Shown in pieces: positions 2,464 through 38,115 of a DNA stretch of 64,000 bases. The notes below the pieces were generated by a model. The model was not told the DNA's origin. It saw nothing but the letters and a program-made list of their open reading frames with translations, and did not search any database. Position numbers and translations under genes: made by a program. This DNA comes from Gammaproteobacteria bacterium (GTDB lineage: Bacteria > Pseudomonadota > Gammaproteobacteria > UBA5335 > SLRW01): positions 22,795 through 86,794 of the forward strand of contig DASQZM010000043.1 of assembly GCA_035638695.1 (NCBI GenBank), written 5' to 3'. Each line of letters opens with the position of its first letter. Within the stretch, counting starts at the first letter, position 1.

Positions 2464-5400
2464 TCAGCCGCCGCGCGGCAGGCTCACCCCGTCACGCAGC
2501 AGCTCGGTGAAGGAATCGGCGGGCAGGGCCGGCGCATAGAAGAAACCCTGACCCTCGGGACAGCCTGCCTCGCGGAGGATGGCGGCCTGTTCCCCGGTCT
2601 CGATTCCCTCGGCGACGAGGCGGATGTCGAGGCTCTGCGCGACGGCGATGATCGCCCGCGTGATCTGAAGGTCCTCCGGGTCGCCGGGCAGGCCGCGGAC
2701 GAAGGACTGATCGATCTTGAGATAGTCGACCACGAACTGCTTGAGGTAATTCAGCGAAGAGTAGCCGGTGCCGAAGTCGTCGATGGCCACGGTCGGGCCG
2801 AGCGCGTGCAGCTGCGCCAGCATCCGGGCCGTGCGCTCCGGATCCTCCATGAGCATGCCCTCGGTGATCTCCAGGTCCAGGCGGGTCGGATCGAGCCCGG
2901 TTTCGGCAAGGATCCGGCTGACCCGGTCCACCAGCTCCCGGTCGCGGAACTGGCGCGGGGAGAGGTTGACCGCCATGCGCAGCGGGCGATGGCCGGCGCG
3001 CTCCCACGCGCGCGCTTGCGAGCACGCGGCGCGCAGGACCCACTCGCCGATCTGTCCGATCAGCCCGCTCTGCTCCGCCACCGGTATGAACTCACCCGGC
3101 CGCACCAGCCCGCGCCGGGGATGCTGCCAGCGAACCAGCGCCTCCGCGCCGATCACGCGCCCGCTGGCGAGCTCGACGCACGGCTGGAAATGCAGCACCA
3201 GCTCTTCCCGTTCCAGCGCCCGCCGCAGCTCGCCCGCGACCGCGAGCGTCTTCGCCGCCGCCGCGTTGATCTCGGGCGAGGCGAACTGGTACGTGTTGCG
3301 GCCGAGTTCCTTGGCTCGGTAGAGGGCGGCATCCGCGTGCTTGAGCAGGGTCTCCACATCCCGGCCGTCGAGGGGATAACAACTGATGCCCACGCTTGCG
3401 GAGGTGAACAGCTGCCCGCCGTCCTGCTCGAAAGGACGGGAAAGTACATCGATGACTTTCTGCGCCACCGCCCCCGCGTCCTGGCTGTCATCCAGCTCGT
3501 CCAACAGGACCGCGAACTCGTCTCCCCCCACCCGGGCCACCGTATCGCTCTCGCGAACGGCTTCCCGCAGCCGATCGGCGACCTGCTTGAGCAGGGCGTC
3601 GCCCGCGTCGTGGCCGAGGGAATCGTTCACGGTCTTGAACTGGTCGAGGTCGAGCAGCAGCAGCCCGGCAGTGCCGCGGCGGCGGCGCGCCCGCTGGACC
3701 GCTTCCCGCCCGCGTTCGAGGAGCAGGGCGCGGTTGGCCAGGCGGGTGAGAGCGTCATGATAGGAAAGGAACTCGAGCCGCGCCTCCGTGTCGCGGTGGC
3801 TGGACATGTCGTTGAAGATCGCCACGTAGTGCGTGATCCGGCCGGCATCGTCGCGCACCGCGCTAATCGCCACCAGCGCCGGATAGCGCTCCCCGTTCTT
3901 GCGACGGTGCCAGATCTCGCCCTGCCAGGCGCCGGTGGTCGGCAACACACGGGCGAGTTCGCGGTACAGTGCGGCATTGTGGCCGCCAGAGCCGACCTGT
4001 GGGGGCGTTTTCCCGAGCACTTCCTCCGCCGGGTAGCCGCTGATCCGGGTAAACGCGCCATTGACAGAGATGATGCGCCAGCCCGGGTCAGTGATCACGG
4101 CGCCCTCGACCATATTGTCCAGCGCGTTGGCCGCGATCCGGGCCTGGGCCTCGGCCTGGCGCCGTGCCGTGATGTCCTTGGCGACCCCGCTGATACCGAC
4201 GGTCTCGCCGTCTACCACGACCGGTCCGCCGGTCGCGGTCATCTCACGGCGCTCGCCACTGGCCGAGATCACGGCGAACTCCAGGCTGCGCAGCTCGCCG
4301 GCGAGCATGCGCCGGAACTCGTTCCAGCAGTTGTCGACATCCGCCGGATCGATCACCCGGGCAAATGACGGCAGGGCACGCAGCGACTCGAGGTCGCGGC
4401 CGGTCATCTCCTGTGCGCTCGCATTGGCGGAGACGAAGCGGCCCTCGCGGTCGAGAAAATAGACCGCGTCCGGGTTGTTGTCGAACAGGGAGCGAAAGCG
4501 CTGCCATCCTTCGTCGAGCAACCGCTCGGCGCGCCGTCGCTCGGTCACGTCGCGCACGATGCCGCAGACTTCGCGCACCTCGCCGTCGCGAACGATCGGC
4601 GTGCTGGCCAGCTCGACCGTGACGCGGCTGCCGTCGCACCGCAGCAGGTCCAGCTCGTACTGCTGCGCCTCCGCCACGAGGCTGCCGCGGAAATGGTCCA
4701 GCACCGTTTCGAGCTGATCCTCGGGGAGCACCTTGCGGAAGTGCTCCCCGATCACCTCTTCCGGGGCATACCCGGTCAGGCGGCTGGCGCCGTGGTTGAA
4801 TTCGAGAAAACGGCCCTCGCGGTCGACCACATACACACCGTCGGTACTCAGCTCGAACAGCGAACGGTAGCGTTCGCGGCTCTCGCGCTCCCGGGACTCT
4901 GCCTCGCGTCGCTCGCTCAGATCGCGCAGGATCACCGCCACGCGCGTCTTTCCGTTGGGATCGGCGAACGCCCGAGCGCTCACCTCTACCGCGACGCTGC
5001 TGCCGTCGCCCCGGACCAGTTCCAGCTCTCCACGCGCTTGGCCGTTGCGCGCGCGCTCCTTCAGGTAGGCCGCCATCGACGGTGCCGATTCCGCCACCAG
5101 CGCGCGCCAGCCGAGCCTTATCAGCTCTGCCTCGGTGCGGCCGAGCAGCCGGCAGGCGGCCGGGTTCGCCGCGAGGATTCCGCCGTCCGGCTGGTTCAGG
5201 AGGATCCCGTCGAGGCTGTGCTCGAACAGCATCCGCAGGCGCTCCTCGCTGGCCCGCAGCCGCGCGCCCGGTTCCCGCGACGGTGATACTTCCCGCACGG
5301 TCCCACGTACGCCGATGATGCGTCCGTCCCGGCGCAGGGGCACCGCCGTGCAGTGCGCCGTCACCTGCTCGCCGTTGCGGCGGACCAGCGTAGTCCGGAA

Positions 5401-6704: not shown

Positions 6705-9122
6705 TTATCGGCCGGTCGGCAGCGGGAGATCGAGCTCCGCGCCGGGGGCCAGCGTGTACGTGCTGCCGTCGAGGGCCACGGTGACGGGACTCGCGGTGGA
6801 GCGCAAGGCGGTCAGGTGCACCCGGGCCGGTTCCAGCACCAGCTCCAGCGCGTGTCCGCGGTAGCGGATACGCACCGCCAAGCGGTCCAGGGCCTCCGGC
6901 AGGCAAGGATCCAGCCAGAGGGTGTCGCCGCGGGTCGAGATCCCGGTAAAGCACCGCTGGACCAGGTCAACGGTGCCGGCCATCGCACCCAGGTGGATGC
7001 CCTCGGCCGTGGTACCGCCCTGGATGTCGTGCACGTCGCTCGCCAGCGCTTCGCGGAATTCCGCCCAGGCGCGGGGCCGGTCCGAACGTGACAGCACCCG
7101 GGCGTGGGCGACCCGGCTCAGGGTGGAGCCGTGCGCGGTGCGCTGCAGGTAGTATTGCACGTTGCGCGGGATCGTCTCGTAGGTAAAGGGATAGTCCAGA
7201 CGGCTGAACAGCTCGCGCAGTTCCTCCGAGGAGAACAAGTAGAACAGCATCAGCACGTCCGCCTGCTTGGACAGGCGGTAGCGGTTGGGAGTATCGCCCT
7301 CGGCCTCCAGAATCCGGTCGAGGCGCTGGATGTCACCGTAGCGCTCCCGGTAGGCCGCCCAGTCGAGCTCGGCCAGCTCCTCGTAGCCCTCGAACTGACT
7401 GATGATGCCCTCCTCGTGGAAGGGTACCCGCATGCGGCGGCTGACCCGGTCCCACAGCTCGAGCTCCGGCGCGTCGATCGCAAGCAACCGCTCGAGCTCC
7501 CGTCGCCGGTCGGCCGGCAGCCGCTCGAGGAGCTCCAGCGCCGTCACCAGCACCCAGACCGCCATCACGTTGGTATAGGCGTTGTTGTCGAGACCCGGGC
7601 GGGACGCGTCGGGGTAGGCGTCGTGATACTCGTCCGGGCCCATCACGCCGCGGATCTCGAAGCGTTCCACGGACTCGTTCCAGCTTGCCCGGCTGGCCCA
7701 GAAACGCGCGATCTCGAGCAGCATCTCGGCGCCGTAGAAGGCCATGAACTCCATGTCGCCGGTCACCTGGAAGTACTGCCACACGTTGTAGACTACCGCG
7801 GCGTTGACGTGTAGCTGCAGATGGCTGTTGTCCGGTATCCAGCGCCCCGACCGGGGATTGAGGTGCAGTTTCTGGCTCTCCTCGCGGCCGCTGCTGCCGC
7901 TCTGCCAGGGGAACATGGCACCGCGCCACCCGGCGCCGGCCGCGGCGGCGCGAGCCACGCCGAGGCGCCGGTAGCGGTACATCAGCAGCGCCCGCGTGAT
8001 CTCCGGCATCCGCAGGTTGATGGTGGGGAACACGAACAGCTCGTCCCAGAACACGTGCCCCCGGTAGGCCTCGCCGTGCAGGCCGCGCGCGGGCACGCCC
8101 GCGTCGAGGTCCATCACGTGCGGGGACGCCGTCTGCAACAGATGGAACGTGTGCACGCGCAGCGCCCGCAGCGCCTCCCTGCCGTCGCTGCCGTCGCGTT
8201 CGGTGAAGTCGATCCCGAAGCGCTCCCACAAGTGCTCCCACGCCCGCACGTGGTCCGACTCCAGCGCTGTCCATCCGGCAGCGCCCCGCACCGCATTGCG
8301 GGCCGCGAGCAGCGGCTCGGAGATGGCGGCATCGCGCGAGCAGTACAGGGCGACCGTCTTGTCGACCGTCAGCGGCTCGCCCGGCGCGACCTTCACCCGG
8401 AACGTGCGTCCCACGCGGCCGCCCTCACGGGTCCGGCGCGCCGCGACCCGGAGCGGCTGCCCGTCTCGGGCCAGGCAAGTGCGTGAGGCCAGCGCGACCA
8501 CCAGGCGGGACTGGCGGGTGCGGACCCGCAGCCAGGCCTCGTCGTCGGCTTCGTGACCGGCATCCAGGAGCTCCAGGTGATGGCCGTCGAGCTCCCGGTA
8601 GCGCGCGACTCCGGTGTTGCTCACGTTGCCATCCAGGTCGGATGCCAGCTCCAGGGTGCCAGTCCAGTCCTCGGCCACGATGATCTGGCGCAGCGCGGCC
8701 AGGTGCGGCTCCGCCATGTGCACCAGACGCCGCTCCGAGAGGCGCGTGGTGCGTCCCGCCGCGTCCCGGAAGCGCAGGCGTGTCAGCAGCAACCCGCGAC
8801 GCAGGTCCAGGGTCTGGCGGTATTCCAGCAGGTCGGCATCGGCGAGGCGCAGCCATGCGCCGTCGGCGATACGCAGGCGCAGGCACAGCCAGTTGGGGAA
8901 ATTGACCAGGTCCTCGTTCTCCACCTCCCGTCCGGCGATCGCGGTCACGAGGCGGTCGTAACCGCCGGCGAGGTAGGTCCCCGGGTAGTGCACCCCGTCG
9001 GCCTCGGCCCAGGCCGACGCCCCGCGCGTGGCGAAGTAGCCGTTGCCCAACGTGCACAGCGCTTCCCGGAGCCCTTCCCCGGCGGGATCGAAGCCGTCCC
9101 GGGTCAGGGTCCAATCGCTCAT
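6705..9122 (-). CDS. Glycoside hydrolase family 65 disaccharide phosphorylase (trehalose/kojibiose/maltose/T6P phosphorylase class)
   Basis: ORF 6705..9368. The ATG at 9122 (MSDWTLTRDGFDP...LCTLGNGYFATRG) is a typical GH65 N-terminus. Contains the GVMGPDEYH motif with the catalytic Glu. The start overlaps the stop of the upstream gene (ATGA at 9119-9122). Confidence 0.9.
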   Translation of the reverse strand: MSDWTLTRDGFDPAGEGLREALCTLGNGYFATRGASAWAEADGVHYPGTYLAGGYDRLVTAIAGREVENEDLVNFPNWLCLRLRIADGAWLRLADADLLEYRQTLDLRRGLLLTRLRFRDAAGRTTRLSERRLVHMAEPHLAALRQIIVAEDWTGTLELASDLDGNVSNTGVARYRELDGHHLELLDAGHEADDEAWLRVRTRQSRLVVALASRTCLARDGQPLRVAARRTREGGRVGRTFRVKVAPGEPLTVDKTVALYCSRDAAISEPLLAARNAVRGAAGWTALESDHVRAWEHLWERFGIDFTERDGSDGREALRALRVHTFHLLQTASPHVMDLDAGVPARGLHGEAYRGHVFWDELFVFPTINLRMPEITRALLMYRYRRLGVARAAAAGAGWRGAMFPWQSGSSGREESQKLHLNPRSGRWIPDNSHLQLHVNAAVVYNVWQYFQVTGDMEFMAFYGAEMLLEIARFWASRASWNESVERFEIRGVMGPDEYHDAYPDASRPGLDNNAYTNVMAVWVLVTALELLERLPADRRRELERLLAIDAPELELWDRVSRRMRVPFHEEGIISQFEGYEELAELDWAAYRERYGDIQRLDRILEAEGDTPNRYRLSKQADVLMLFYLFSSEELRELFSRLDYPFTYETIPRNVQYYLQRTAHGSTLSRVAHARVLSRSDRPRAWAEFREALASDVHDIQGGTTAEGIHLGAMAGTVDLVQRCFTGISTRGDTLWLDPCLPEALDRLAVRIRYRGHALELVLEPARVHLTALRSTASPVTVALDGSTYTLAPGAELDLPLPTGR

Positions 9123-10702
9123 GACTCGTTGCCGCTCCCGGCCACCAGGCACTCCAGCAGCCTTGCCACCGCGTCCGGGTCCGCCAGGCGATAGCGCGCC
9201 GCCGTGGCACGCGGCCGGGCGGCCACCAGGATGCCGACCCCGCGCCCGGCGAGCGCGGCGAAGGCGTCCTCGTCGGTCTCGTCGTCGCCGACGTAGACGG
9301 GCAACACGCGGTCGGCATCGAGGTGCATGGCACGCATCAGCCAGTCCAGCGCGCGCCCCTTGTCCCACTCCAGCCGCGGGCGCAACTCGTATACCTTCTT
9401 GCCGCCGGTCCGCCGCAGCTCGGGATGGGCAGCCAGGACCTCGGTCACGGCCTGCCGCACCGCGGGAAGGTCGGCATGGGATACCAGCCGGTAGTGCACC
9501 GCCACGGCGTAGGTCTTGTCCTCCACCAGCGCTCCCTCGACGCCGGCGAGCCGCGCACCCAGGCGCGTTGCCGCCTCGTGAATCGCCGGGACGTACTTCT
9601 CGCCGCGGGGATACGCCTGGCGAAACCCGTTCGGGCCGCTGATCTCGAAGCCGTGGCTGCCGGCGTAGTAGAGGGCGTCGAGCCCCACCATGCGGGCGAC
9701 CTCCTCCCGCGCCCGGCCGCTCACCACCGCCACCGGCATCCGCCGCGCGAGCCTGGCCAGCGCCTCGCGTACGGACGCCGCCAGCACGGCCTGCTCCGGC
9801 CGGTCCACGATCGGTGTCAGGGTGCCGTCGTAATCCAGGAACAGGGCCGGATCCCGGCCTGCGAGCATCGCGGCGACCATCTCCGGCCGATCGGGTACGG
9901 CACCCGTGCTGGCAAAGGTGAACCGTTCCAGGTCATTCACCACCAGATCGGCCCCGGCCTGCCCCAGAAGGCCTGCGTTGCGGCCGTGGTCCAGGCCCAC
10001 GACCAGCGCGAAGCCGCCCCGGCGGCCCGCCTGGACGCCCGACACCGCGTCCTCCACCAGCATTGCTTCCCGGGGCCCGACGCCGAGCCGGCGCGCGGCT
10101 TCCAGGTACATGTCCGGCGCCGGCTTGCCCGCCAGGCCGGCCTCGGCCAGATCGACCCCGTCCAGCACCAGGTCGAACAGTCCCTCCAGGCGCGCGCGCT
10201 GGAGCACGAGGCGCCCGTTGCGGCTGGAGGTCACCGCCGCCGTGGCCAACCCCGCCTCCCGGGCCCGGTGCAGGAAAGCCACGGAGCGATCGAACACCTC
10301 CACGCCCCGGTCCTGCAGCAGCCGGAGGTAGCGCTCGTTCTTGCGATTGCCGATGCCGCACACCGTCTCCGCCGACGGCGGATCCCCGGGGGTGCCCCAA
10401 GGCAGCCGGATGCGGCGTGCGGCCAGAAACGCCGCGACGCCGTCATAGCGGGGCTTGCCGTCGACATAGGCGTAGTAATCCCGCTGCGCGTCGAACGGCG
10501 CCGGCCCGGCCCCGCCCGCGGGCGCGTGAGCGGCCAGGAAGTCGTCGAAGACTTCCTTCCAGGCCGCCGCATGCAGCGCCGCCGTGCGCGTAACCACCCC
10601 GTCGAGATCCGCGAGCACGGCGCGGATACGCCGGGGATCGATCACCGGCCGGCGACTGTCGGCCGGTGGCCGGCCGGCCTGGGCGGACTTGCGGGACGGC
10701 AT
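9119..10702 (-). CDS. Fusion protein: beta-phosphoglucomutase-like HAD domain + trehalose-6-phosphate phosphatase-like HAD domain
   Basis: The N-terminal half has ADLDGVVTRT (beta-PGM-type DxDG motif). The C-terminal half has LFLDYDGTLTPIV...YVGDDETDEDAF (OtsB-type motifs). Preferred start is the ATG at 10702, with GGGGAG upstream. Confidence 0.85.
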   Translation of the reverse strand: MPSRKSAQAGRPPADSRRPVIDPRRIRAVLADLDGVVTRTAALHAAAWKEVFDDFLAAHAPAGGAGPAPFDAQRDYYAYVDGKPRYDGVAAFLAARRIRLPWGTPGDPPSAETVCGIGNRKNERYLRLLQDRGVEVFDRSVAFLHRAREAGLATAAVTSSRNGRLVLQRARLEGLFDLVLDGVDLAEAGLAGKPAPDMYLEAARRLGVGPREAMLVEDAVSGVQAGRRGGFALVVGLDHGRNAGLLGQAGADLVVNDLERFTFASTGAVPDRPEMVAAMLAGRDPALFLDYDGTLTPIVDRPEQAVLAASVREALARLARRMPVAVVSGRAREEVARMVGLDALYYAGSHGFEISGPNGFRQAYPRGEKYVPAIHEAATRLGARLAGVEGALVEDKTYAVAVHYRLVSHADLPAVRQAVTEVLAAHPELRRTGGKKVYELRPRLEWDKGRALDWLMRAMHLDADRVLPVYVGDDETDEDAFAALAGRGVGILVAARPRATAARYRLADPDAVARLLECLVAGSGNES

Positions 10703-10821
10703 CGCGTCTCCCCATGGCTGCGTGGAACATCCGGGGCGGGGCCTGGCGCCTCCATCGGCTGCCACTGTACAGGACACGTCGGCGCCGCATTACAACCTAG
10801 CAGCACCACGCAGCCGGTTGT

Positions 10822-10835
10822 TTGATTCGCGTCAT
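10822..10835. promoter_or_regulatory. Candidate FNR/FixK-type box TTGATTCGCGTCAT (8/10 to TTGAT-N4-ATCAA)
   Basis: Centre is at 10828.5. On the minus strand a TAnnnT hexamer (TAGGTT, 10799-10794) places the box at -41.5 relative to a predicted start near 10787, upstream of the beta-PGM/T6PP-GH65 pair. Confidence 0.35.
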
Positions 10836-11028
10836 TCCGCGCGCCGGTTTGGCGGCGGCTGCGTCTCGTGTGCAGGGCTTTGCTCCGGGCCGATTCTCGA
10901 CTACCATTTACAAATACAGATGATTCCTATTCTCGTGTCTGGCGCGTCCGGCATCGCGCCGCACCGAGGTTCGCGCCCTACAGGACGTACCGGCACCGGC
11001 AGCCCACCGACGCCGATGCCGCCGGGGC

Positions 11029-11460
11029 GTGATCGACAGCCTCAATCCCGCCGCGGAACAGCTGTTCGGGTACCGCGAAAGCGAGCTCACGGGCGAGAAC
11101 GTGCGCATACTCATGCCCTTGCCCTACCGTGATGAGCACGACGGCTACCTGCAGCGTTACCTGGAGACCGGCGAGAAGCACATCATCGGCACCGGGCGCG
11201 AGGTTACGGGACTGCGCCGGGACGGCACTACCTTCCCCATGGATCTGGCCGTCGGCGAGTTCGAGCACGACGGCCACCGCTACTTCGCCGGCGTGGTGCG
11301 CGATGTGACTGACCGGCACGAGTACGAGAACGGCATGGGGCAGGGCTTGTCGATCTGCCACTCGATCGTACGCAGCCATGGCGGCCGCATCGGGCTCGCC
11401 CGCAACCATCCGCATGGCACGCGGTTCACGTTTGCCATACCCTTGCACGATGATCTCTGA
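11029..11460 (+). pseudogene. fixL: FixL-like heme-PAS sensor kinase relic: PAS retained, kinase core (H-box, N, G1, F boxes) deleted
   Basis: The 143-aa ORF reads [10 protein letters not shown]...[22 protein letters not shown]...[40 protein letters not shown]. It then jumps straight to a G2-box/C-terminal HATPase fragment, [38 protein letters not shown]. There is no phospho-acceptor His region. The N-terminal PAS strands are degenerate and there is an in-frame stop at 10921-10923. Confidence 0.6.
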
Positions 11461-12082
11461 TCCCGCGACGCCGACCGTCTACGTGGTCGACGACGAGAAC
11501 GCGATCCGGGACGCCCTGGGGCTTCTGCTGGAGACCGAGGGCTGGCGGGTCCTGAGCTACGAGTCCGCCGACGCCTTCCTCCGCGACTGCGGCCCCGGCA
11601 GCCGCGGGTGTGTCGTGCTGGACCTGAACATGCCCGGCCTGAACGGGCTCGAGGCCCAGGACCGCCTGCGGGAGCAGGGCATCGACATGCCGGTGATCAT
11701 CCTCACCGGCAATGCCGATGTGCCGGCGGCGGTCCGCGCCCTGAAGCACGGTGCGCTGGACTTCATCGAGAAGCCGTTCAGCGAACGCGACATGCTGGCC
11801 GTGGTCGGCCGTGCCCTGGAGCAGGACCGGCGGCGCGCGGAGGCGTCGCGCCAGCGCTCCGAGATCGGGGGGCGAGCGGCGACCCTGACCGGGCGGGAGC
11901 GGGAAATCATGGCGCTGATCGTGGCCGGTAAGGCCAACAAGGTGGTCGCCAGTGACCTGGGCATCAGCGAACGCACCGTGGAGCTGCACCGCTCGCGCAT
12001 CATGAAGAAGATGGGTGCCCGATCCGTGGCGGAGCTGGTGCAAATGAACCTGCAGCTGGGAAGACGGTACGAATCCTCGTAG
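11450..12082 (+). CDS. fixJ: FixJ-type two-component response regulator (REC + LuxR-type HTH)
   Basis: [23 protein letters not shown]...[14 protein letters not shown] (receiver Asp), then [44 protein letters not shown] (LuxR HTH). The start overlaps the fixL-relic stop by 11 nt. Confidence 0.85.
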
Positions 12083-12226: not shown

Positions 12227-12240
12227 CTGACTGGCGTCAA
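12227..12240 (+). promoter_or_regulatory. Candidate FNR/FixK-type box CTGACTGGCGTCAA (7/10; TGA-N6-TCA core intact)
   Basis: Centre is at 12233.5. The -10-like TTGAAT at 12263-12268 gives a predicted +1 near 12275, so the box is at -41.5, upstream of the orphan receiver gene. Confidence 0.35.
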
Positions 12241-12329
12241 TGTTCCGCCGCGGCGGCTGGTGTTGAATGGTCGCCATCGGCCGCCGGGAGCGGCGACGGA
12301 ACCGGATGCAAGCGAGACGGGCCAGGGGG

Positions 12330-12731
12330 ATGAACGCCAACGCCGTAAGACTGACCGACCCGGTCGGAACCGTGTACATCGTGGATGACGACGATGCCGT
12401 GCGCGACGGCGTGTCCCTGCTGGTCCAGGCCTGCGGCTGGACCGTGGCCGCGTTCGATTCGGCGGAGGCGTTCCTGTCCCGCTACGCGCGGGCGGAGAAC
12501 CAGTGTCTGGTGCTTGACCTGCACATGCCGGGGATGAACGGCGCGGAGCTGGAGGAGCACCTCCGGGCCCAGGGCAACGATATCCCGGTGATCGTGATCA
12601 CCGCGTACAAGGAAGATCCCCTGATTACCCGCGCACGTGCCGCCGGCGCCGCGCGGGTACTCACCAAGCCCTTCAACGACGCGGACCTGCTGGAGAGCAT
12701 CGAGCAGGCCGTGGGCAAGCCGCAGCCCTAG
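12330..12731 (+). CDS. Single-domain (CheY-like, FixJ-receiver-like) response regulator
   Basis: VYIVDDDDAVRDGVSLL...LVLDLHMPGMNGAEL...VIVITAY...LTKPF with no output domain. The start is ambiguous (ATG 12330 or ATG 12306). Confidence 0.8.
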   Translation: MNANAVRLTDPVGTVYIVDDDDAVRDGVSLLVQACGWTVAAFDSAEAFLSRYARAENQCLVLDLHMPGMNGAELEEHLRAQGNDIPVIVITAYKEDPLITRARAAGAARVLTKPFNDADLLESIEQAVGKPQP

Positions 12732-12909
12732 CCATCCGCAGACAACCCGTCCGGACTTCCCGTCCCGGTACGGGTAATTACGTATTTCGCCCCTTTCCCC
12801 TTCCTCCTAGAGTTTGCTTCACACGATGAATCGAGCGGGCCGCAGGTGCCTGCGCCCGCGGGAAGCAACACCGGCGGCCAAGCCGGCGAAGGAAAAGGGG
12901 AGTACGAAG

Positions 12910-13671
12910 ATGGGCATGTCAGCGATCGTCGACCTGGAGCAGCGCAAAAATTCCTGCCTCTGGTGCGGAGCCAGGCAGAACTGTATCGCGGCATCGCTGG
13001 AGGCCGCGGATGCGGCCCTGCTGGAGCCGGTCAAGCGCCCCTCCCGGGTGGTCCGCCGCGGACAGCACCTGTTCCTCGCGGGAGACCAGCTGCCGGCGCT
13101 TTACGTGATCCGCTCCGGGTCGATCAAGAGCTACGTCATTACCGAGGACGGCGAGGAGCAAATCATCGGCTTCCACCTGCCCGGCGACACGATCGGCTTC
13201 GACGCCCTGGCCACCGGCGAGGCCCGCTCCAACGCCGCGGCGCTGGAGACCTCCAGCATCTGCACGCTGCCCCTGGAGGGGCTGTGGCAGGTCGCCGAGC
13301 GCTCGGTGACGCTGCGGCGCGAGCTGATCAGGGGCATGAGCCGGGAGGTGCTGCGGCTGACCGGAATGCTGCAGAACGAGCGTCGCACCGCCGATCAGCG
13401 CCTGGCCGCCTTCCTGCTGGACCACGCCGACAACATGGGCCGGCGCGGCTACTCGACCGAGGTGTTCAACCTGTCCATGTCACGCCGGGACATCGGCAAG
13501 TACCTGGACATGGCCACCGAGACGGTCTCGCGGGTGCTGACCCGGTTCCAGGGTCTGGGGCTGCTGGCGACCAACCGCAACGAGATCCGCCTGCTCGACC
13601 CGACGGGCCTGAAGCACCTGGTGACCGAGGGAGGGATCGGGGATACCTCCCGCGCGGTGACCCATCACTGA
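12910..13671 (+). CDS. fnr: FNR/ANR-type oxygen-sensing Crp-family transcription regulator
   Basis: N-terminal C-x2-C-x5-C (SCLWCGARQNC) plus a fourth Cys in ETSSICTLP, equivalent to FNR C20/C23/C29/C122. YVIRSGSIKSY...IIGFHLPGD cNMP-like barrel. Recognition helix ETVSR (E--SR). GGGGAG sits 9 nt upstream of the ATG at 12910. Confidence 0.9.
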   Translation: MGMSAIVDLEQRKNSCLWCGARQNCIAASLEAADAALLEPVKRPSRVVRRGQHLFLAGDQLPALYVIRSGSIKSYVITEDGEEQIIGFHLPGDTIGFDALATGEARSNAAALETSSICTLPLEGLWQVAERSVTLRRELIRGMSREVLRLTGMLQNERRTADQRLAAFLLDHADNMGRRGYSTEVFNLSMSRRDIGKYLDMATETVSRVLTRFQGLGLLATNRNEIRLLDPTGLKHLVTEGGIGDTSRAVTHH

Positions 13672-13703
13672 GCAGCGCACGAACACATCTCCTCCGCGCG
13701 CCT

Positions 13704-13738
13704 GGCCCGGAGCCCGCCGGCTCCGGGCCTTTCTTTTT
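13704..13738 (+). terminator. Rho-independent terminator downstream of fnr
   Basis: GGCCCGGAGCC-cgcc-GGCTCCGGGCC stem-loop, immediately followed by TTTCTTTTT. Confidence 0.75.
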
Positions 13739-13849
13739 GGTGCGGGCACGGGATGGTCAACGACTTGCCAACCCGGTCAGAGGTAATGCCTCATCGCAAC
13801 GCTCCTGTCGGCCTGTCGCACAGGGTGCCTCGCCCGGCGTCGCAAGAGC

Positions 13850-13863
13850 TTGATACGGGTCAA
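13850..13863 (+). promoter_or_regulatory. FNR/ANR box TTGATACGGGTCAA at class II position (-41.5)
   Basis: 9/10 match to TTGAT-N4-ATCAA with a perfect TTGA-N6-TCAA core. The -10-like TCTAAT at 13886-13891 gives a predicted +1 near 13898, and the palindrome centre at 13856.5 is then exactly 41.5 nt upstream. Confidence 0.6.
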
Positions 13864-14038
13864 TGTCGGAGTCCTGGCAGCAGCATCTAATGGGTCTGCC
13901 GGGCCGCGGGCTGTTGTGGATACGCTTGTCGCGCTGCCCGCGTGGCCCGGCCATGCCGCGGTATGGACCGGACGCACCGGGCCGCTGCCAGAGCAGAGGG
14001 GACGGTCTTTTGCCCGGAGCCGGAAGGAGGCCACGATC

Positions 14039-14257
14039 ATGGCCGGGACACGCACCACCAGTACCAGCTCGGCCAAGGCCGCCGCGGCGATGCGCAAGGC
14101 GATCCCCGAGCACGAGCGCCACCGGCGCATTGCCGAAGCTGCCTATTGGCGCGCGGAGAAGCGCGGCTTCCCGGGCCGTGATCCCCTCGAAGACTGGTTG
14201 GTCGCGGAAGCCGAGTTCGAGCACACGAACGACCGCGGCTCCCGCGCCAGAGACTGA
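14039..14257 (+). CDS. Small DUF2934-like protein (72 aa)
   Basis: The ATG at 14039 is preceded by GGAAGGAGG. RIAEAAYWRAEKRGFPGRDPLEDWLVAEAEF matches the DUF2934 signature as I remember it. Confidence 0.7.
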   Translation: MAGTRTTSTSSAKAAAAMRKAIPEHERHRRIAEAAYWRAEKRGFPGRDPLEDWLVAEAEFEHTNDRGSRARD

Positions 14258-14317
14258 CCCGATGCTCGGGAGCGCCGACCGCAACCGTACGGAGGGGTCG
14301 CTGCGAGGACGCCCGGC

Positions 14318-15007
14318 ATGACACAGCCAGGCGGGCAGTACGCCGCCCCCGAGCCCGATCCCGGGGAGTTCGCGGTCAAGGACTGTGCCCTGATCGCGAT
14401 CGCCACCGGCCTGCGCGCGGTCACGCTCGGGGACCTGCAGGACCACCTCCGGGTCGTGGCCCTGGAGAGCCTGTACTACCACTTCTGGGGCGGCCTGCTG
14501 CAGCAGCGGTTCGAGCCGCGCGAGTACAACAACGACTTCGCCGAGTGGGCGCGGCACGCGCTGCACTATGCACCGCTGGCCGAACGGCTGGCGGTGCTCG
14601 ATCCGACCGATCACCCGGACCTCGGGGACCTGCGCCGGGAGCTTCTCGACCGGGTCGAGGAAAGCCTGTACGAATCCGAGGATCTCGGCTGGATGCACGC
14701 GATCCGTCCGTTCGAGTTTATCCGCTGCCAGACGGTCGTGTTCGACACCGACCGGCGCATCCGGGGCCCGGACGAGCTGGCCGACGTGATCCCGGCGCTG
14801 CCGCCGAGCAGCCTCTTCTACCATTTCATCGACGCCCGCCGGCGCGAGCCGCTCGGCGTGGACGACTTCCGCGCTTGGCTGCAGGGCTGGGGACCGGACC
14901 GGCAGGCGCTGATCGACCGGCTGTCCGGGGTCGACCCCTACGAGGGCGGGCTCAACGAGCTGCGCGCCAGCCTGGTGGCCGCGTTCACCGGCGGGGAGGG
15001 CGCGTGA
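14318..15007 (+). CDS. Uncharacterised protein built from two tandem ~95-aa repeats, translationally coupled to treT-like gene
   Basis: 229 aa with an internal duplication: SLYYHFW/SLFYHFI, NDFAEWA/DDFRAWL, LAVLDP/LSGVDP, LRRELL/LRASLV. The stop TGA (15005-15007) overlaps the GTG start of the next gene. Confidence 0.8.
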   Translation: MTQPGGQYAAPEPDPGEFAVKDCALIAIATGLRAVTLGDLQDHLRVVALESLYYHFWGGLLQQRFEPREYNNDFAEWARHALHYAPLAERLAVLDPTDHPDLGDLRRELLDRVEESLYESEDLGWMHAIRPFEFIRCQTVVFDTDRRIRGPDELADVIPALPPSSLFYHFIDARRREPLGVDDFRAWLQGWGPDRQALIDRLSGVDPYEGGLNELRASLVAAFTGGEGA

Positions 15008-16242
15008 GCCTCCTGGACCAGTACGCCGAGGTGGTCGGGCCGGCGATGATCGACCACCTGGCGCAGCTGGCCGCGCCACTTCAGGGCGCGCGCGTGGTGC
15101 ACGTCAACTCCACCCGCGTCGGCGGCGGAGTCGCGGAGATCCTGGGCAAGCTGGTGCCGCTCACGCGCGAACTCGGCGTCGACGCGCAGTGGGAGGTGAT
15201 CAGCGGCGACCAGGACTTCTTCCAGTGCACCAAGAACATGCACAACGGCCTCCAGGGCTCGCCGGTCAATCTTTCCGAACGCCTGGTCCAGGCCTACGAG
15301 ACCACCACGGAGCGGGCCGCCAGCCTGCTGGGCGCGCGGCTCGCCGAGGCGGAGTTCGTGTTCATCCACGATCCGCAGCCTGCCTACCTGCTGCGCTTCT
15401 TCCCTGAGCGGCACGGCAAGTGGATCTGGCGCTGCCATATCGACGTCAGCCACCCGTACCGGCCGGTGTGGAAATACCTGCGGAACATCGTCGGCGGCTA
15501 CGACGCGAGCGTGTTCTCGCTGGCCGCGTTCGCCCAGGCGCTGCCCTGCCCGGAATACATCGTCCCGCCCAGCATCGATCCGCTCGCGGACAAGAACATC
15601 GACCTGGAAGACGCCGAGCTGGGGGCCGTTCGCGCCCGTTTCGGGCTGGATCCGCAGCGGCCGCTGGTGGTCCAGGTTTCGCGCTTCGACCGCTTCAAGG
15701 ACCCGGTGGGGGTGATCCACGCCTTCCGGCTCGCGCTCCGCTACCTGCCCCGGCTGCAGCTGGTGCTCGCAGGGGGCAGCGCGAGCGACGACCCGGAGGG
15801 CGACGTGGTGCTGCAGGAGGTGCGGTCCGCCGCGGCGGACGATCCGGACGTGCACGTACTGCTGCTGCCGGCGGACGACCATCGCACGGTCAATGCCCTG
15901 CAGCGCTGCGCCGACGTGGTCCTGCAGAAATCCTTGCGCGAGGGCTTCGGCCTGACCGTCACCGAGGCCATGTGGAAACATCGCCCGGTGATCGGCGGCA
16001 ACACCGGGGGAATCCGGCTGCAGGTGTTCGACCACCATACCGGCTACCTGGTCAGCACCCCGGAAGGCGCTGCGCTGCGGATCCGGCACCTGATCGCGCG
16101 GCCGGACCGGATCGCGGAAATGGGACAAAAGGCGCACAATCTGGTGCGCGACAATTTCCTGATCACGCGTCAGCTGCGGGAATACCTGACGCTCATGGTC
16201 GCGCTGCTGCACGCAGCGCGCGAACGCATCGAGCTGGGTTGA
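15004..16242 (+). CDS. treT: TreT-like trehalose glycosyltransferring synthase (GT4 family)
   Basis: The GTG at 15004 is preceded by [24 protein letters not shown]...FIHDPQPA...WRCHIDVS...[15 protein letters not shown]...[20 protein letters not shown] closely parallels archaeal/bacterial TreT as I recall it. Confidence 0.78.
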
Positions 16243-16267
16243 CGCCGCCGGAGACGGCAACCGAGGC

Positions 16268-18402
<2,135 letters not shown>

Positions 18403-18406
<4 letters not shown>

Positions 18407-20223
18407 TCCGGCGCCACCGCGAGACCGGGTTCGGCGCCGAGATCATGCCCGACCGCCAGGTGCGTTTCCGGCTCTGGGCGCCGGCGGCGGCGTCGGTCTG
18501 TGTGGTGTCGGACGGCAATCCGGAGCTGCCCATGGCCCCGCAGCGCGGGGGCTGGTTCGAACTCGTCACGGGCGTTCTGGGGCCCGGGGACTGCTATCGC
18601 TACCGCATCGACGGCGGCGCGGCCTGTCCGGATCCCGCTTCGCGCTACCAGCCGCAGGACGTACACGGACCCAGCGAGGTGATCGATCCCGCAGCCTTCG
18701 AATGGCGCGACGACGGCTGGCGCGGGCGGCTCTGGAGCGAGGCCGTGATCTACGAACTGCACCCGGGTACGTTCACGCCCGCTGGCGGCTTTGACGGCGT
18801 GCGCGGGCGCCTGGGCCATCTCTGCGACCTGGGCGTCACAGCTATCGAACTGATGCCGGTGGCGGACTTCCCCGGTCGCCGCAACTGGGGCTACGACGGC
18901 GTGCTGCCGTTTGCACCCGACAGCAGCTACGGGCGCCCGGAATCCCTCAAGCGTCTGGTGCAGGCGGCACACGGCCACGGCCTGATGGTCCTGCTCGACG
19001 TCGTCTACAACCACTTCGGCCCGGAAGGCAACTACCTGCACGGTTACGCCCCGCAGTTCTTCTCCCGGCGCCACCACACGCCCTGGGGCGCCGGGATCAA
19101 CTTCGACGGGGTCGATGCCGGCCCGGTGCGCGACTTCTTTGTCGAAAATGCCCTTTACTGGCTCGAGGAGTATCACCTCGACGGCCTACGCCTGGACGCC
19201 GTGGACACCATCGCGGATGACTCGCGCCCGGACATCCTGGACGCGATCGCCGCGGCCGTGCACGACGGACCGGCCCGTCGGCGGAGCGTCCACCTGGTGC
19301 TGGAGAATGACCGCAACGACCCACACCGCCTGGACCGGCCGAACGGCTACACGGCCCAGTGGAACGACGACCTGCACCACGTTCTGCATCTGCTGACGAC
19401 CGGCGAGCGCGAGGGCTACTACCGGGACTACGCGGACCGCCCCGCGGCGCACCTGGCGCGCTGCCTCACCGAGGGCTTCGCCTACCAGGGCGAGCCCTCG
19501 GCCTTCCGCGGCGGGCGACCGCGCGGCGCGCCCAGCGGCCACCTGCCGCCCGGCGCCTTCGTCGGCTTCCTGCAGAACCACGACCAGGTCGGCAACCGGG
19601 CGCTGGGCGAGCGCATCACGGCGCTGGCGCCCGCCGACGCGGTGCGCGCGGCGCTCACCATCCTGCTGCTCGCCCCCGCACCGCCACTGTTGTTCATGGG
19701 CCAGGAATGGGGCAGCAGGCGGCCGTTCCTGTTCTTCTGCGACTTCGAGCCCGCCCTGGCACGCAAGGTCGCGAACGGGCGGCGGGACGAGTTCGCGGAT
19801 TTCCCGGCGTTCGCCGGCCCCGGGGCACGCCGGCGCATCCCGAACCCCGGCGACCGGAACACCTTCACCCGCTGCGTGCTCGACTGGGGCGAGATCGCGC
19901 GCGACGGCCACGCGGCGTGGCTGTCCCTGCACCGTGAGCTTCTGGCACTGCGCCGGAACCTGCTGCCGGGCCTCGCCGGCGCCCGCGCCGAAAATGCAGG
20001 CGCCATCGGACCGGGAGCCGTGTGCATCACGTGGACCCTCCCTGACGGATCCCGGCTGACCCTCGCCGCAAACCTCCACGCCGCGCCCTCGGCGCCGCTG
20101 CCGCAGGCCCGCGGCGAGTTGCTGTTCACCGCCGGCGAGGCCCCGTCGCCGGCCGGGGACAGCTGGCGGCTGGCGCCCTGGAGCGCGCGCTGGTACCAGG
20201 ACCGGGGGGAGGCCCGCGGGTGA
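18403..20223 (+). CDS. treZ: Malto-oligosyltrehalose trehalohydrolase
   Basis: The GTG at 18403 overlaps the glgX stop (GTGA). [18 protein letters not shown]..., [39 protein letters not shown] and [11 protein letters not shown] motifs. An alternative ATG at 18445 would cut the conserved FGA. Confidence 0.9.
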
Positions 20224-23200
20224 ACGCGGAAGATTTGCTGGAGCGCCTGGCGCGCTGCCACGGCATCGAGCCGGCCTACCACGATATCTGGGGCAACCAG
20301 CACGCGACCAGCGCGGAGACCGCGCGCGCGCTGCTGCGCGCCATGGGGGTGCCGGCGGACGATCCGGCGGCGATGCGCGCCGCACTCGCGGTAGCCGGGG
20401 AGCGCCCGTGGCGCGAGGTGCTCGATCCGGTGCTGGTCACCTCCGCCGATGCGCCGCTGCACATCCGCCTGCATCTGCCCGCAACCGCGCCCGAATCGCC
20501 GGGTCGCTGGCGGCTGCTGCCCGAGGCGGGCGAGCCACGCGAAGGCACCCTGCGCCTCGACGAGCTCGCCGTGCTGGAGCGGCGCGAGATCGACGGCGTC
20601 GCCTGCGGCCGTTACGAGCTGGTGCTGGACGGCCTGCCAGCCGGATATCACCGGTTCGAGCTGGACGGCCAGCGGCCCGCCGGCATGCCGGTGATCGCCG
20701 TGCCGCCCCGCTGCTACCTCCCGCCTGTCCTGGAGCAGGGCGGGCGGCTGTGGGGCCCGGCGGTGCAACTCTATTCCCTGCGGTCCGCACGCAACTGGGG
20801 CATCGGCGACTTCACCGACCTCGACGACCTGGCCCGGCTGGCCGGCGACCTCGGCGCCGACATGCTGGGCCTGAGTCCGCTGCATGCGCTGTTCCCGCAC
20901 CAGCCCGAGCGCTGCAGCCCCTACCGGCCCTCCAGCCGGCTGTTCCGCAATGTTCTCTACCTCGACGCCGAGCGCCTCCCGGAGCTGGGCGAATGCCCGG
21001 AGGCCGCCGCCATGGTGCAGGATCCCGACTTCCAGGCGGAGCTGCAGGCACTGCGCGAGAGCGAGCTGGTCGACTACCCGGGGGTCGCGGCGGTCAAGCT
21101 GCCACTGCTGGAGCGCCTCCACCGGCACTTTCGCGAGCGGCACCTGGAACCGGACAGCGAGCGGGGCCGGGCGTTCCGGGAATTCCGGCGCTCCGGGGGC
21201 CGCGCGCTGCAGCGGCACGCCCTGTTCGAGGCGCTGCAGGAGCACTTCCTGGAGCAGGACCCGCCCGTACCCGATTGGCCGTCCTGGCCGGAGCGCTACC
21301 GGCGACCGGACACGCCGCAGGTCGCGGCGTTCGCCGCCAGCCGGGCCGGCCGCATCGAATTCCATGCCTGGCTGCAGTGGCTGGTGCGGGAGCAGCTCGA
21401 TGCCGCCGCGCGGCGGACGGGGGAAATGGCAGTCGGGCTGTACCAGGACCTCGCCGTGAGTGTCGACCCGGACGGGGCCGAAGCCTGGGCCAACCAGGAT
21501 CTCTACGCCATCACCGTCAGCATCGGCGCACCCCCGGACGACTTCAACCTGCGTGGGCAGGACTGGGGGCTGCCGCCGCCGATCCCGCAGCGCCTGCGCC
21601 GGGCGGCGTACGCGCCGTTCATCGCCACCCTCCGGCATAACATGCGCGACGCCGGCGCATTGCGCATCGATCACGTGATGGGGCTGATGCGGCTGTTCTG
21701 CGTGCCCCGCGAGGCCTCTCCCGAGCAAGGCGCCTATGTCGCCTATCCGCTGGACGATCTGCTCGGGATCCTGGCGCTGGAGAGTCAGCGCAATCGCTGC
21801 CTGGTCATCGGCGAAGACCTGGGCACGGTGCCCGACGCGCTGCGCCAGGCGCTGGCCAACCGCCGGATCCTGTCGTACCGGGTGCTGATGTTCGAGAAGA
21901 CCGGGCGCGGCTTTCGCGCGCCGGAGGAATACCCGCCGCAGGCGCTAGCCACGGCCGGCACCCACGACCTGCCGACCCTGTCCGGCTTCTGGGAGGGACG
22001 CGACCTGGTGCTGCGCACCGAGCATGCCCTGTTTCCGAGCGAGGCCCTGCGGGACGCGCAGCAGGCACAGCGGGAACGGGACCGGAGCGACCTGCTCCAC
22101 GCCCTGCAACGCGAGCGGCTGCTCCCGGAGGGAGTGGACACCGATCCCGCCGCGGTGCCGCGCATGACCGAGGCCCTGGCCGGTGCTTTGCAGCGCTATC
22201 TCGCCCGCAGCCCGGCGATGCTGATGGCGCTGCAGCTGGAAGACCTGTTCGGTCAGCGCGAGCAGATGAACCTTCCGGGGACGGTGGACGAGTACCCCAA
22301 CTGGCGGCGCAAGCTGTCCCTGGGACTGGAGCGCTACCCGGCGGACGGCCGGCTGCATCGGGTCGCCGACGCGCTCGCCGCCGAAGGGCGCAGCGGCGCG
22401 GGGGCGGGGCCCCGACAAGAACCCCGCCCGCAGGGCGACGACCCGGCCGTGGTCCCGCGGGCCAGCTACCGGCTGCAGCTCAACGCCGGGCTGACCTTCG
22501 CCGATGCGCGTGGCCTGGTGGGCTACCTGGACTCGCTCGGGATCAGCCACTGCTACGCCTCGCCCTGCCTGAAGGCGCGACCGGGCAGCAGCCATGGCTA
22601 CGACATCGTCGACCACTCGGCCCTGAACCCCGAGCTCGGTGCGCGGGACGAGTTCCAGGCCTGGACCGACGCCCTGCACGCTGCGGGCATGGGACTGATC
22701 CTGGACATCGTGCCCAACCACATGGGGGTGATGGGCGCCGACAACAGCTGGTGGCTGGACGTGCTGGAGCAGGGGCCGGCCTCTCGCTACGCGGACTTTT
22801 TCGACATCGACTGGCACCCGGTCAAGCCGGAGCTCCACGGCAAGGTGCTGGTTCCGGTACTCGGCGACCACTACGGGGTGGTGCTGGAAAGCGGCGCCCT
22901 GCGGCTGGAGCTGGACCCGGCCAAGGCCTCCTGGAGCGCCTTCTACCACGAGCACCGCTTCCCGCTGGACCCGGCGACCTGGCCACGGCTGCTGCGCAGC
23001 CAGCTCGGCCTGCTCGCCGACCGGCTCGGGGCTGACCACCCGGCGCCACCGGCGCTGGAGCGGCTGGCCGGCGACCTGGAGGAGCTGCCCGAACGAACCG
23101 ATCCCTCCCGGGAGCGCTGCGCGGCGCGGCTCCAGGCCTGCCGCGCCCACAAGCAGACCCTGGCGGCGCTGTGCCGGCAGCATCCCCAGGCCCGGGAGCA

Positions 23201-25319: not shown

Positions 25320-27034
25320 GCGTGCAGAACGCCGAGATTGCCCGCCTGTTCGCGCGTCTGGCAGATCTGCTGGAGATCGAGCAGCAGAACCCGTTCCGGG
25401 TCCGGGCCTACCGCAACGCCGCACGCGTGATCGGCGGCCTGTCGCATCCGGTAGCCGATCGCGTGGCCACCGGCGAGGACCTGACCGATCTGCCGGGGAT
25501 CGGGGAGGACCTGGCCGACCGCATCATCGGCATCGTCAAGACCGGCCGTTTTCCGCTGCTGGAGGAGGTCGAGCGGCGCACCCCCGGCACCCTGAGCGAC
25601 CTCATGAAGGTGCCGGGCCTGGGGCCGGCACGCGTGCGCACCCTCTACCGGGAGCTGGGCATCACCGGCCCGGAGGACCTGGAGCGCGCGCTGCGCACGG
25701 GCGCGGTGCGCGAGCTGTCAGGCTTCGGCGAGAAGACCGAGGCCGCGCTGCGGTCGGCGCTGGCGCGCACCCGGGCGGCCTCGGAGCGCACCCTGCTGGC
25801 CGAGGCGGAGACCCTGGCGCGACCGCTGAGCGAGTGGCTGGGCGGCTGCGAGGGCGTGCTCGAGGTCGCGGTCGCGGGCAGCTTCCGGCGGCGGCGGGAG
25901 ACGGTAGGCGACCTGGACATCCTGGTGACCTGTCGCCGCGGCGCGTCGGTGATGGACTGCTTCACGGCCTGGGAGGACGTGGGCGAGGTAATCTCGCGGG
26001 GCCGGACGCGCTCCACGGTAATGCTGCGCTCCGGCACGCAGGTGGACCTGCGGGTCGTGCCGCAGATCAGCTATGGGGCGGCCCTGCAGTACTTCACCGG
26101 CTCGCGCGCGCACAACATCCACGTCCGCCGCATCGCCGGCCAGCGCAAGCTCAAGATCAACGAGTACGGGGTCTTCCGCGGTCGCCGCCGGGTCGCCGGG
26201 CGGAACGAGGAAGAGGTGTATGCGGCCCTGGACCTGCCCTGGATCCCCCCGGAGCTGCGCGAGGACGCCGGCGAGATCGAGGCCGCGGCCCGCGGTGCCC
26301 TGCCGCGGCTGATCGAGCCGAGCGACCTGCGCGGTGACCTGCATTGCCACACCCGGGCCACCGACGGTCAGCAGAGCATCGGGGAAATGGCCCGCGCCGC
26401 CGCGGACCGCGGCCACGAGTACCTCGCCATCACGGATCACTCGCGTCGCGTGTCGATGGCCCACGGCCTGGACGCGGACGCGCTGCTGGCCGAGATCGAC
26501 GAGATCGACCGCATCGCCGAGACCCTGCCGGACATGCGGCTGCTCAAGGGCATCGAGCTGGACATCCTCGAGGACGGAAGCCTGGACCTGCCGGACCGGG
26601 TGCTGGACCGCCTGGACCTGACCGTGTGCGCCGTACACTACGGCCTGGGCCTGTCCCGGCGCCGGCAGACCGAGCGCATCCTGCGGGCCATGGACAATCC
26701 CCGCTGCACCATCCTGGCCCACCCGCGGGGGCGCCTGATCGGCGAGCGCGAGCCTTGCGAGCTGGACATGGAACGCATCATGCGTGGCGCCCGCGAGCGC
26801 GGCTGTATCCTGGAGGTCAACGCCCAGCCGCGGCGCCTGGACCTGTCCGACAGCGACTGCCGCATGGCCTGCGAGCTGGACGTGGCGCTGGCGATCAATA
26901 CCGACGCGCACTCGGCAGCCCAGCTGGACCTGCTTCGGTTCGGCGTGGACCAGGCCCGGCGCGGCTGGGTGGAGCCGGGGCGGGTGATCAACACCCTGCC
27001 GCTCGGCGAGCTGCTCGCCCGCCTGCGGCGCTGA
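25316..27034 (+). CDS. polX: Family X DNA polymerase with C-terminal PHP phosphoesterase domain (PolX)
   Basis: The ATG at 25316 overlaps the malQ-treY stop (ATGA). NAEIARLFARLADLLEI...NPFRVRAYRNAARVI (HhH), GSFRRRRETVGDLDILV (catalytic Asp pair), HCHTRATDG...LAITDHS (PHP). Confidence 0.9.
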   Translation: MSVQNAEIARLFARLADLLEIEQQNPFRVRAYRNAARVIGGLSHPVADRVATGEDLTDLPGIGEDLADRIIGIVKTGRFPLLEEVERRTPGTLSDLMKVPGLGPARVRTLYRELGITGPEDLERALRTGAVRELSGFGEKTEAALRSALARTRAASERTLLAEAETLARPLSEWLGGCEGVLEVAVAGSFRRRRETVGDLDILVTCRRGASVMDCFTAWEDVGEVISRGRTRSTVMLRSGTQVDLRVVPQISYGAALQYFTGSRAHNIHVRRIAGQRKLKINEYGVFRGRRRVAGRNEEEVYAALDLPWIPPELREDAGEIEAAARGALPRLIEPSDLRGDLHCHTRATDGQQSIGEMARAAADRGHEYLAITDHSRRVSMAHGLDADALLAEIDEIDRIAETLPDMRLLKGIELDILEDGSLDLPDRVLDRLDLTVCAVHYGLGLSRRRQTERILRAMDNPRCTILAHPRGRLIGEREPCELDMERIMRGARERGCILEVNAQPRRLDLSDSDCRMACELDVALAINTDAHSAAQLDLLRFGVDQARRGWVEPGRVINTLPLGELLARLRR

Positions 27035-27047
27035 CCGAGGGTCTCCA

Positions 27048-36039: not shown

Positions 36040-36043
<4 letters not shown>

Positions 36044-37254: not shown

Positions 37255-37381
37255 CCTCGCTCTTGCGACGTCATGCCCACTCTAAGGTCGGCCGCCTCGC
37301 CGGGGCTTGATCCCCATCAGCCCCGTCCGCCGGCGGGTCGATATGCTGGTTCAAGGCCCGGCTGATGAACGGATCGCCCGC

Positions 37382-38115
<734 letters not shown>

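Follow-up and report, generated by a model that had tools for sequence, protein, structure and literature searches.

The locus examined here raises the question of whether an FNR-type palindrome, placed ahead of a long string of trehalose and DNA-repair genes, is the activator site from which that string is transcribed, and which regulator would read it. The window, meaning the whole stretch of DNA that was analysed (64,000 nucleotides), derives from an uncultured gamma-proteobacterium assembled from several metagenomes. Judged from sequence features, the palindrome at 13850 probably serves as the activator site in a class II FNR-type promoter, from which one transcript would run from the DUF2934 gene to fpg. 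This reading had been put forward in an initial annotation of the same DNA and is supported by conservation in three species, a recurring promoter layout, the sequence of the neighbouring regulator and the packing of the operon.

The palindrome and hexamer ahead of the DUF2934 gene

The FNR-type box, TTGATACGGGTCAA, occupies positions 13850–13863 and agrees with all eight core positions of TTGA-N6-TCAA and with nine of the ten positions of TTGAT-N4-ATCAA. It is followed on the plus strand by a −10-like hexamer, TCTAAT, at 13886–13891, which lies 22 nt past the box and places the predicted transcription start at about 13898. With the start assumed at 13898, that is, 7 nt beyond the hexamer, the centre of the palindrome falls at −41.5. 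These elements had all been claimed in the initial annotation: the sequence readout returned the same box, consensus match and hexamer, and the −41.5 arithmetic was reproduced under the same assumption of a start 7 nt beyond the hexamer. The distances given there also agreed with those measured, as the box begins 111 nt after the T-run of the upstream fnr terminator (about 110 nt had been stated) and 176 nt separate it from the ATG of the DUF2934 gene at 14039.

Class II FNR and ANR promoters of Escherichia coli and Pseudomonas, for example narG, dmsA and arcDABC, carry the regulator site at −41.5. The window promoter resembles them in having a TTGAT-N4-ATCAA motif over the predicted −35 position, a −10-like hexamer 22 nt further on and no −35 hexamer, and differs from them in its half-site consensus, TTGA(C/T)-N4-GTCAA followed by TG. 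The prediction that 13850–13891 constitutes a class II FNR-type promoter, ordinary in kind and unusual in its gene cargo, is well supported.

Judged within the window alone, the box is marginally beyond chance and only suggestive. TTGA-N6-TCAA is matched once on both strands of the 64-kb window, with 0.09 matches expected, and at least one match was present in 9 of 100 shuffles of the window. When up to one mismatch to TTGAT-N4-ATCAA was allowed, two matches were found against 0.20 expected, and two or more were present in 3 of 100 shuffles. Eleven window sites have at most one core mismatch, and five or six of them are non-coding by a test of codon-position asymmetry around the individual sites; this test was the sole use kept for a GC3-based gene map, which was too crude in itself (window G+C, 70%).

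The box was raised above chance because it is conserved in other species. The exact locus is carried by three species, all of one clade, and the relatives of the window locus are L007 (GCA_035638775.1, with a DUF5752 protein 86% identical) and L010 (GCA_975969915.1, 78%). The counterparts of the box are TTGATATGCGTCAA in L007 and TTGACCGGCGTCAA in L010, with TCTAAT and TTGAAT, respectively, as the hexamer at the same spacing. All three species keep TTGA-N6-TCAA followed by TGT, with a diverged spacer of exactly 22 nt before T(C/T)(T/G)AAT. In the alignment of the intergenic DNA (A2), the mean column identity is 62% and large gaps are present, and the box and the hexamer form the main invariant blocks. 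It is thus close to refuted, and in our estimate very improbable, that the palindrome is a chance occurrence or that its TTGATA is the −35 element of a constitutive sigma-70 promoter. Such an explanation would find room in the 9 of 100 shuffles that contain a match and in the identity of TTGATA to TTGACA at five of six positions, but both half-sites are kept in the three species amid diverged DNA, and the second half-site, GTCAATGT, is better conserved than the first. Furthermore, the positions 16–18 nt downstream of TTGATA hold CCTGGC and its neighbours, none of them a −10-like hexamer, and a simple consensus-match scan of 12600–14400, in itself weak evidence, returned no sigma-70 −35/−10 pair; TTGATA was rejected as a plain sigma-70 −35 element.

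Two other readings of this stretch were tried and dropped. A sigma-54 promoter formed by TGGCAG...TCTAAT does not fit in its GG/GC spacing, and the GG is not kept in L010. An attenuator or riboswitch in the predicted 148-nt leader (13898–14045) was discarded because the leader folds no better than its shuffles (z = −0.65) and is not conserved between species. No known RNA family was detected by a Rfam scan of 12500–14500 at E-values up to 1.

The arrangement in L010 bears on the ownership of the box. Two minus-strand genes, a 107-residue gene and a PilZ-like gene (2536–3268), are inserted there between fnr and DUF2934, and the box is found on the DUF2934 side of the insertion. This argues that the box is part of the DUF2934 operon's promoter rather than of the 3′ region of fnr. 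In L010 the divergent PilZ gene may be a second target of the box, with CACACT located 22 nt away on the minus strand.

The downstream gene string and its distant relatives

The string from DUF2934 to Fpg that had been described downstream of the box was recovered in the order DUF2934-DUF5752-TreT-GlgX-TreZ-MalQ-TreY-PolX-Fpg, with every gene on the plus strand. The first gene encodes a 72-aa DUF2934 protein (14039–14257) and is separated by 60 nt from the gene for a 229-aa DUF5752 protein (14318–15007). A TreT-type trehalose synthase (15004–16242) starts within the DUF5752 stop, with an overlap of 4 nt, and is followed by a GlgX/TreX-type debranching enzyme (16268–18406) and by a TreZ-type maltooligosyl trehalose trehalohydrolase (18403–20223), the GTG start of which overlaps the preceding stop. 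The next gene (20220–25319) encodes a 1699-aa protein in which MalQ, a GH77 4-alpha-glucanotransferase, is fused to a TreY-type alpha-amylase domain; L125 has this fusion as well. The string is completed by a PolX DNA polymerase/PHP protein (25316–27034), joined to the malQ-treY stop through an ATGA overlap, and by an Fpg/MutM glycosylase (27048–27833), which begins 13 nt after polX and closes the operon, the gene beyond it being convergent.

From 14318 to 27833 the junctions consist of 4-nt overlaps at 15004, 18403, 20220 and 25316 and otherwise of gaps of at most 25 nt. Between 13600 and 29500, no convincing plus-strand terminator and no other promoter-like site was found except for one weak in-gene match. 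Packing of the genes through PolX and Fpg as one predicted operon of 13.8 kb is supported, as is the conservation of this linkage within the clade. The polX-fpg tail is attached to the trehalose operon, with apparent translational coupling, in all three species of the clade (25316–27833 in the window, 7001–9512 in L125 and 2011–4537 in L126), while in Thioalkalivibrio denitrificans (L127) polX-fpg is not coupled to trehalose genes. The link between repair and trehalose genes is therefore specific to the clade.

The DUF5752-treT pair is distributed far more widely. DUF5752 is followed directly by TreT in 80 of the 80 genome loci retrieved (L012–L091), which span Gammaproteobacteria, Desulfobulbaceae, cyanobacteria, Nitrosomonas and others, and the two adjoin in all loci examined. 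This adjacency over several phyla implies a functional pair; a literature search found no mention of DUF5752. Within the 350 nt upstream of DUF5752 at 78 non-identical loci, seven perfect boxes were observed where 0.52 were expected, an enrichment of about 13-fold, and the maximum reached in 200 dinucleotide shuffles was three. Boxes are 17 times as frequent upstream as in the remainder of these loci, a figure obtained from nine boxes in 400-nt upstream stretches with two loci of identical upstream regions left unmerged. The enrichment is confined to perfect boxes, given that sites with at most one core mismatch numbered 14 upstream of distant DUF5752 genes against 10.45 expected.

A perfect box is lacking in 72 of the 78 distant loci. 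The six loci that bear one are all gamma-proteobacterial and belong to Thiogranum, Ectothiorhodospiraceae, Chromatiales and a MAG labelled Pseudomonadales. No fnr gene lies within 4 kb at any of these six loci; an adjacent regulator is therefore not required, and another protein of the CRP/FNR family could use the box. The predicted control of the DUF5752-treT trehalose module by CRP/FNR-family proteins is recurrent, not universal. In some loci of Ectothiorhodospiraceae type, two FNR-type boxes lie 166 nt apart upstream of DUF5752 (L047 at 3158; L048 at 1069 and 1235; L051), and the proximal box of such pairs has TAG(T/G)CT 22 nt downstream.

DUF2934 is confined to the window clade; in the distant loci DUF5752 comes first, with the box directly upstream of it. 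Together with the 60-nt gap between DUF2934 and DUF5752, this makes an additional internal promoter possible. The same three features would also be accommodated if FNR bound the box without activating the full 13.8-kb string, either by acting as a repressor or by driving DUF2934 alone while the remaining genes relied on one or more promoters of their own. That arrangement is considered quite improbable: the invariant distance of 22 nt between box and hexamer is the geometry of class II activation, four of the junctions are 4-nt overlaps, and the 13600–29500 interval offers neither a terminator nor an alternative promoter beyond the weak match noted above. Activation of the whole string from the palindrome at 13850 remains the preferred reading.

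The neighbouring regulator and the other promoters of the island

The gene immediately upstream of the box (12910–13671, plus strand) encodes an FNR-like regulator of 253 aa; its start had earlier been placed at 12911 and is corrected here to 12910. It is closed by an intrinsic terminator at 13704–13739, formed by a hairpin at 13704–13729 with an 11-bp G+C-rich stem and then a T-run. The protein scores 195.7 bits against the NCBIfam model of the Fnr subfamily, which is under the cut-off of 228 although this is still by far the best model; the FixK model is second, at 86.6 bits against a cut-off of 300. It aligns with Aliivibrio fischeri FNR (5cvr) at an E-value of 1e-47. In this alignment C16, C19, C25 and C118 fall on the four cluster ligands of the A. 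fischeri protein, with the Cys-X2-Cys-X5-Cys arrangement and the central Cys present, and the ETVSR segment is paired with ETISR, the recognition helix of E--SR type. The four [4Fe-4S] cysteine ligands and the E--SR helix that the initial annotation had reported were thereby upheld. A further segment, ITEDGEEQI, is aligned with the ITEQGDEQI loop of A. fischeri FNR, the ITE-G-EQI loop being known as AR3 in E. coli FNR. The window regulator is like those of known class II FNR/ANR systems in its four cysteine ligands and E--SR helix and unlike them in falling under the curated Fnr cut-off. A scan of metagenomes with the FNR protein returned only the known L007 species and FNRs at most 43% identical.

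The regulator gene is preceded on the plus strand by a fix-type module. At 10924–11460 lies a fixL remnant in which a heme-PAS domain runs directly into the final ~45 residues of the kinase's ATPase domain. The remnant matches the heme domain of Sinorhizobium FixL (1d06) at an E-value of 6e-35, the EHDGYLQRY segment included, and lacks the DHp domain that bears the phospho-accepting histidine; it is not an intact FixL kinase. In L007 the C-terminal piece of fixL alone is left, and it is frameshifted, while the more distant loci L128 and L129 have intact fixL genes of 636–659 residues. The remnant is followed by a FixJ-like response regulator with a receiver and a GerE/LuxR helix-turn-helix (11450–12082), whose best-scoring model is FixJ (232 bits, with the cut-off at 255), and by a single-domain response regulator with a FixJ-like receiver (12330–12731). 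All three species retain intact copies of fixJ and of the receiver gene. FixL input has apparently been lost in the lineage, and a predicted Fe-S-based FNR sensor kept.

FnrN of Rhizobium leguminosarum is a cysteine-containing, autoregulated protein. As in FixLJ-FixK(-FixT) cascades and with FnrN, a box precedes the receiver gene in the window and the regulator seems to act on its own transcription unit. The window regulator is unlike FixK in carrying the FNR cysteines and cannot be classed as a FixK without a cluster. The gene order fixL, fixJ, single-domain receiver and CRP/FNR regulator is that of the FixLJ-FixK(-FixT) cascades of alpha-proteobacteria (PMC7078487); unlike in these, the host is a gamma-proteobacterium and its fixL is internally deleted, with no DHp domain. 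The receiver was considered as a FixT and rejected, given that the 4-Cys motif of Caulobacter FixT (PMC7078487) is absent, the window protein having two Cys only and a normal phospho-acceptor pocket; the resemblance to fixT is one of gene order alone.

Two more promoters with the box-22 nt-hexamer layout are present in the island. The first, CTGACTGGCGTCAA followed by 22 nt and TTGAAT (12227–12268, plus strand), stands ahead of the unit made up of the single-domain receiver gene and fnr. L007 and L010 both retain it, and in L128 and L129 the boxes are perfect; a conserved box ahead of the receiver-fnr unit suggests putative positive autoregulation of fnr. The second, ATGACGCGAATCAA followed by 22 nt and TAGGTT (10794–10835, minus strand), is located ahead of a divergent gene (9119–10702, minus strand) that encodes a 527-aa protein in which a beta-phosphoglucomutase-like HAD domain is fused to a trehalose-6-phosphate phosphatase. 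It is kept in L007 as GTGACGCGAGTCAA, 22 nt and TAGGTT. The regulatory context described in the initial annotation therefore stands with respect to the FNR box and the operon and was incomplete in that these two additional island boxes, the decayed fixL, fixJ and the receiver gene had been missed.

The same layout recurs beyond the clade. The loci of FNR relatives ~50% identical to the window protein have the order fixL-fixJ-receiver-fnr-hsp20-LonC-like protease-usp and contain perfect boxes, with the hexamer 22 nt on, ahead of the receiver gene, of hsp20 and of a divergent gene. For 16 sites drawn from these neighbourhoods, agreement with TATAAT averages 3.94 of 6 at an offset of 22 nt and 0.5–2.25 at the other offsets from 14 to 30, a profile in which the choice of strand and site was not blind for some of the sites, for example a few on the minus strand. 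Across all sites compared, the distance of 22 nt between box and hexamer is invariant.

A mechanism can be proposed on these grounds. When oxygen is scarce, the FNR-like protein would hold a [4Fe-4S] cluster on C16/C19/C25/C118 and dimerise, and its ETVSR helix would read TTGA-N6-TCAA. Bound ~41.5 bp upstream of the start, FNR would recruit RNA polymerase to a promoter with a −10 but no −35 hexamer, and a single transcript would extend from ~13898 to 27833 through DUF2934, DUF5752-treT, treX, treZ, malQ-treY, polX and fpg. From the box at 12227 FNR would also raise transcription of its own unit, and from that at 10822 it would turn on the divergent trehalose-phosphatase gene; the whole island would then constitute a local low-oxygen regulon. 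In this scheme we infer the start site, binding by the neighbouring FNR, activation over repression, and oxygen as the signal.

One alternative concerns the identity of the reader. The box may be functional and yet be read by a different member of the CRP/FNR family, such as an NO sensor of Dnr/NnrR type or a cysteine-free protein of FixK type, in response to another signal. FNR, ANR, Dnr and FixK proteins have TTGA-N6-TCAA in common, the view of this genome spans 64 kb, and another CRP/FNR paralogue of the genome could be using the same box. The organism has denitrifiers among its relatives, such as Thioalkalivibrio denitrificans and Thiohalomonas denitrificans, and the distant DUF5752-treT loci that carry the box have no fnr within 4 kb. 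A different reader is nevertheless judged unlikely, considering that the linkage of fnr and box is held in three species, that the conserved box ahead of the fnr unit is what would be expected of an autoregulated FNR, that boxes flank the gene on either side in the ~50%-identical FNR relatives and that the neighbouring protein possesses an ETVSR helix of the kind that reads TTGA-N6-TCAA. The adjacent FNR-like protein is accordingly retained as the probable reader of the box at 13850.

Known systems and the wider setting of the island

A rise of trehalose under low oxygen has long been known. To our knowledge, treT, treXZ, malQ-treY, polX and fpg lie outside the described FNR regulons. Literature searches found no description of an FNR-controlled treT or treYZ operon. 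The novelty claimed in the initial annotation is nevertheless reduced by a micro-oxically induced trehalose synthase gene of Paraburkholderia phymatum, SptreS, whose promoter contains a putative Fnr site (PMC13375364). That system shares with the window, where the link is predicted, a tie between trehalose synthesis and oxygen limitation, and it likewise has an Fnr-type site noted in the promoter. It differs in that its pathway is TreS and not TreT/TreYZ, in that its host is a beta-rhizobium in a symbiotic setting, and in that SptreS has neither an adjacent regulator nor DNA-repair genes, the site being noted there and not analysed (PMC13375364). A trehalose gene under predicted CRP/FNR control has also been described in an anammox community (PMC8510549). 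With these two cases, the link between low oxygen and trehalose has precedents. What are new in the window are the predicted placement of its trehalose operon under FNR, the coupling to PolX and Fpg, and the putative local regulon of three promoters.

If confirmed, the arrangement would mean that one regulator ties oxygen limitation both to compatible-solute synthesis, by TreT, TreY/Z and the trehalose-phosphatase route, and to base-excision and gap-filling repair by Fpg and PolX. It would extend FNR regulons beyond respiration and supply a mechanism for the rise of trehalose under low oxygen. The island would also represent a FixLJ-FNR module outside the alpha-proteobacteria, apparently midway through the loss of its kinase. 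The prediction is clean and holds no surprise in mechanism, and since this box is one that E. coli FNR also reads, the promoter lends itself readily to testing.

The DosR regulon of Mycobacterium tuberculosis, a hypoxia and dormancy regulon, includes hspX, universal stress proteins and otsB1. The island is like it in theme, combining a low-oxygen regulator with genes for small heat-shock proteins, Usp and trehalose phosphatase (hsp20, lon and usp beside the fnr relatives; the phosphatase and a Usp-like gene in the window). DosR is of NarL type, and the regulator family and the DNA motif are unrelated, the resemblance being functional only. It is possible, and on balance doubtful, that the island is a self-contained low-oxygen survival programme, an analogue of the DosR regulon assembled from FNR parts. 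In a halophilic or alkaliphilic gamma-proteobacterial lineage of sulfur type, an ancestral fixL-fixJ-receiver-fnr subfamily controlling hsp20, a LonC-like protease and Usp would have lost its FixL input and captured the 13.8-kb operon. In that operon PolX and Fpg would be combined with three routes to trehalose, and the loss of oxygen alone would trigger a state in the style of dormancy or desiccation, with a glass-forming sugar and DNA repair.

The genes beyond fpg touch on the origin of this arrangement. A GCS2 glutamate-cysteine ligase gene (27830–29194, minus strand) is separated by a divergent spacer from genes for a LonC-like protease (29440–31872) and a Usp-like protein (31869–32696). 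In the fnr relatives, lonC-like and usp genes follow closely after fnr, which gives the trehalose/repair block the look of an insertion between fnr and lon. Two of the non-coding window sites with at most one core mismatch are additional candidates. Within the divergent spacer, a candidate site, TTGACCTGCATCAT followed by 22 nt and CAGACT (29308–29349, plus strand), is placed ahead of the LonC-like protease and Usp-like genes. It is identical in L125, where the spacer has hardly diverged. A further candidate, TTGATCCCCATCAG, occupies 37307–37320 in a spacer of 127 nt between a gene for an HlyD-type membrane-fusion protein (36040–37254, minus strand) and a pair of genes for an ABC ATPase and an FtsX permease (37382–40485); its minus-strand reading is CTGATGGGGATCAA, followed by 22 nt and TAGAGT.
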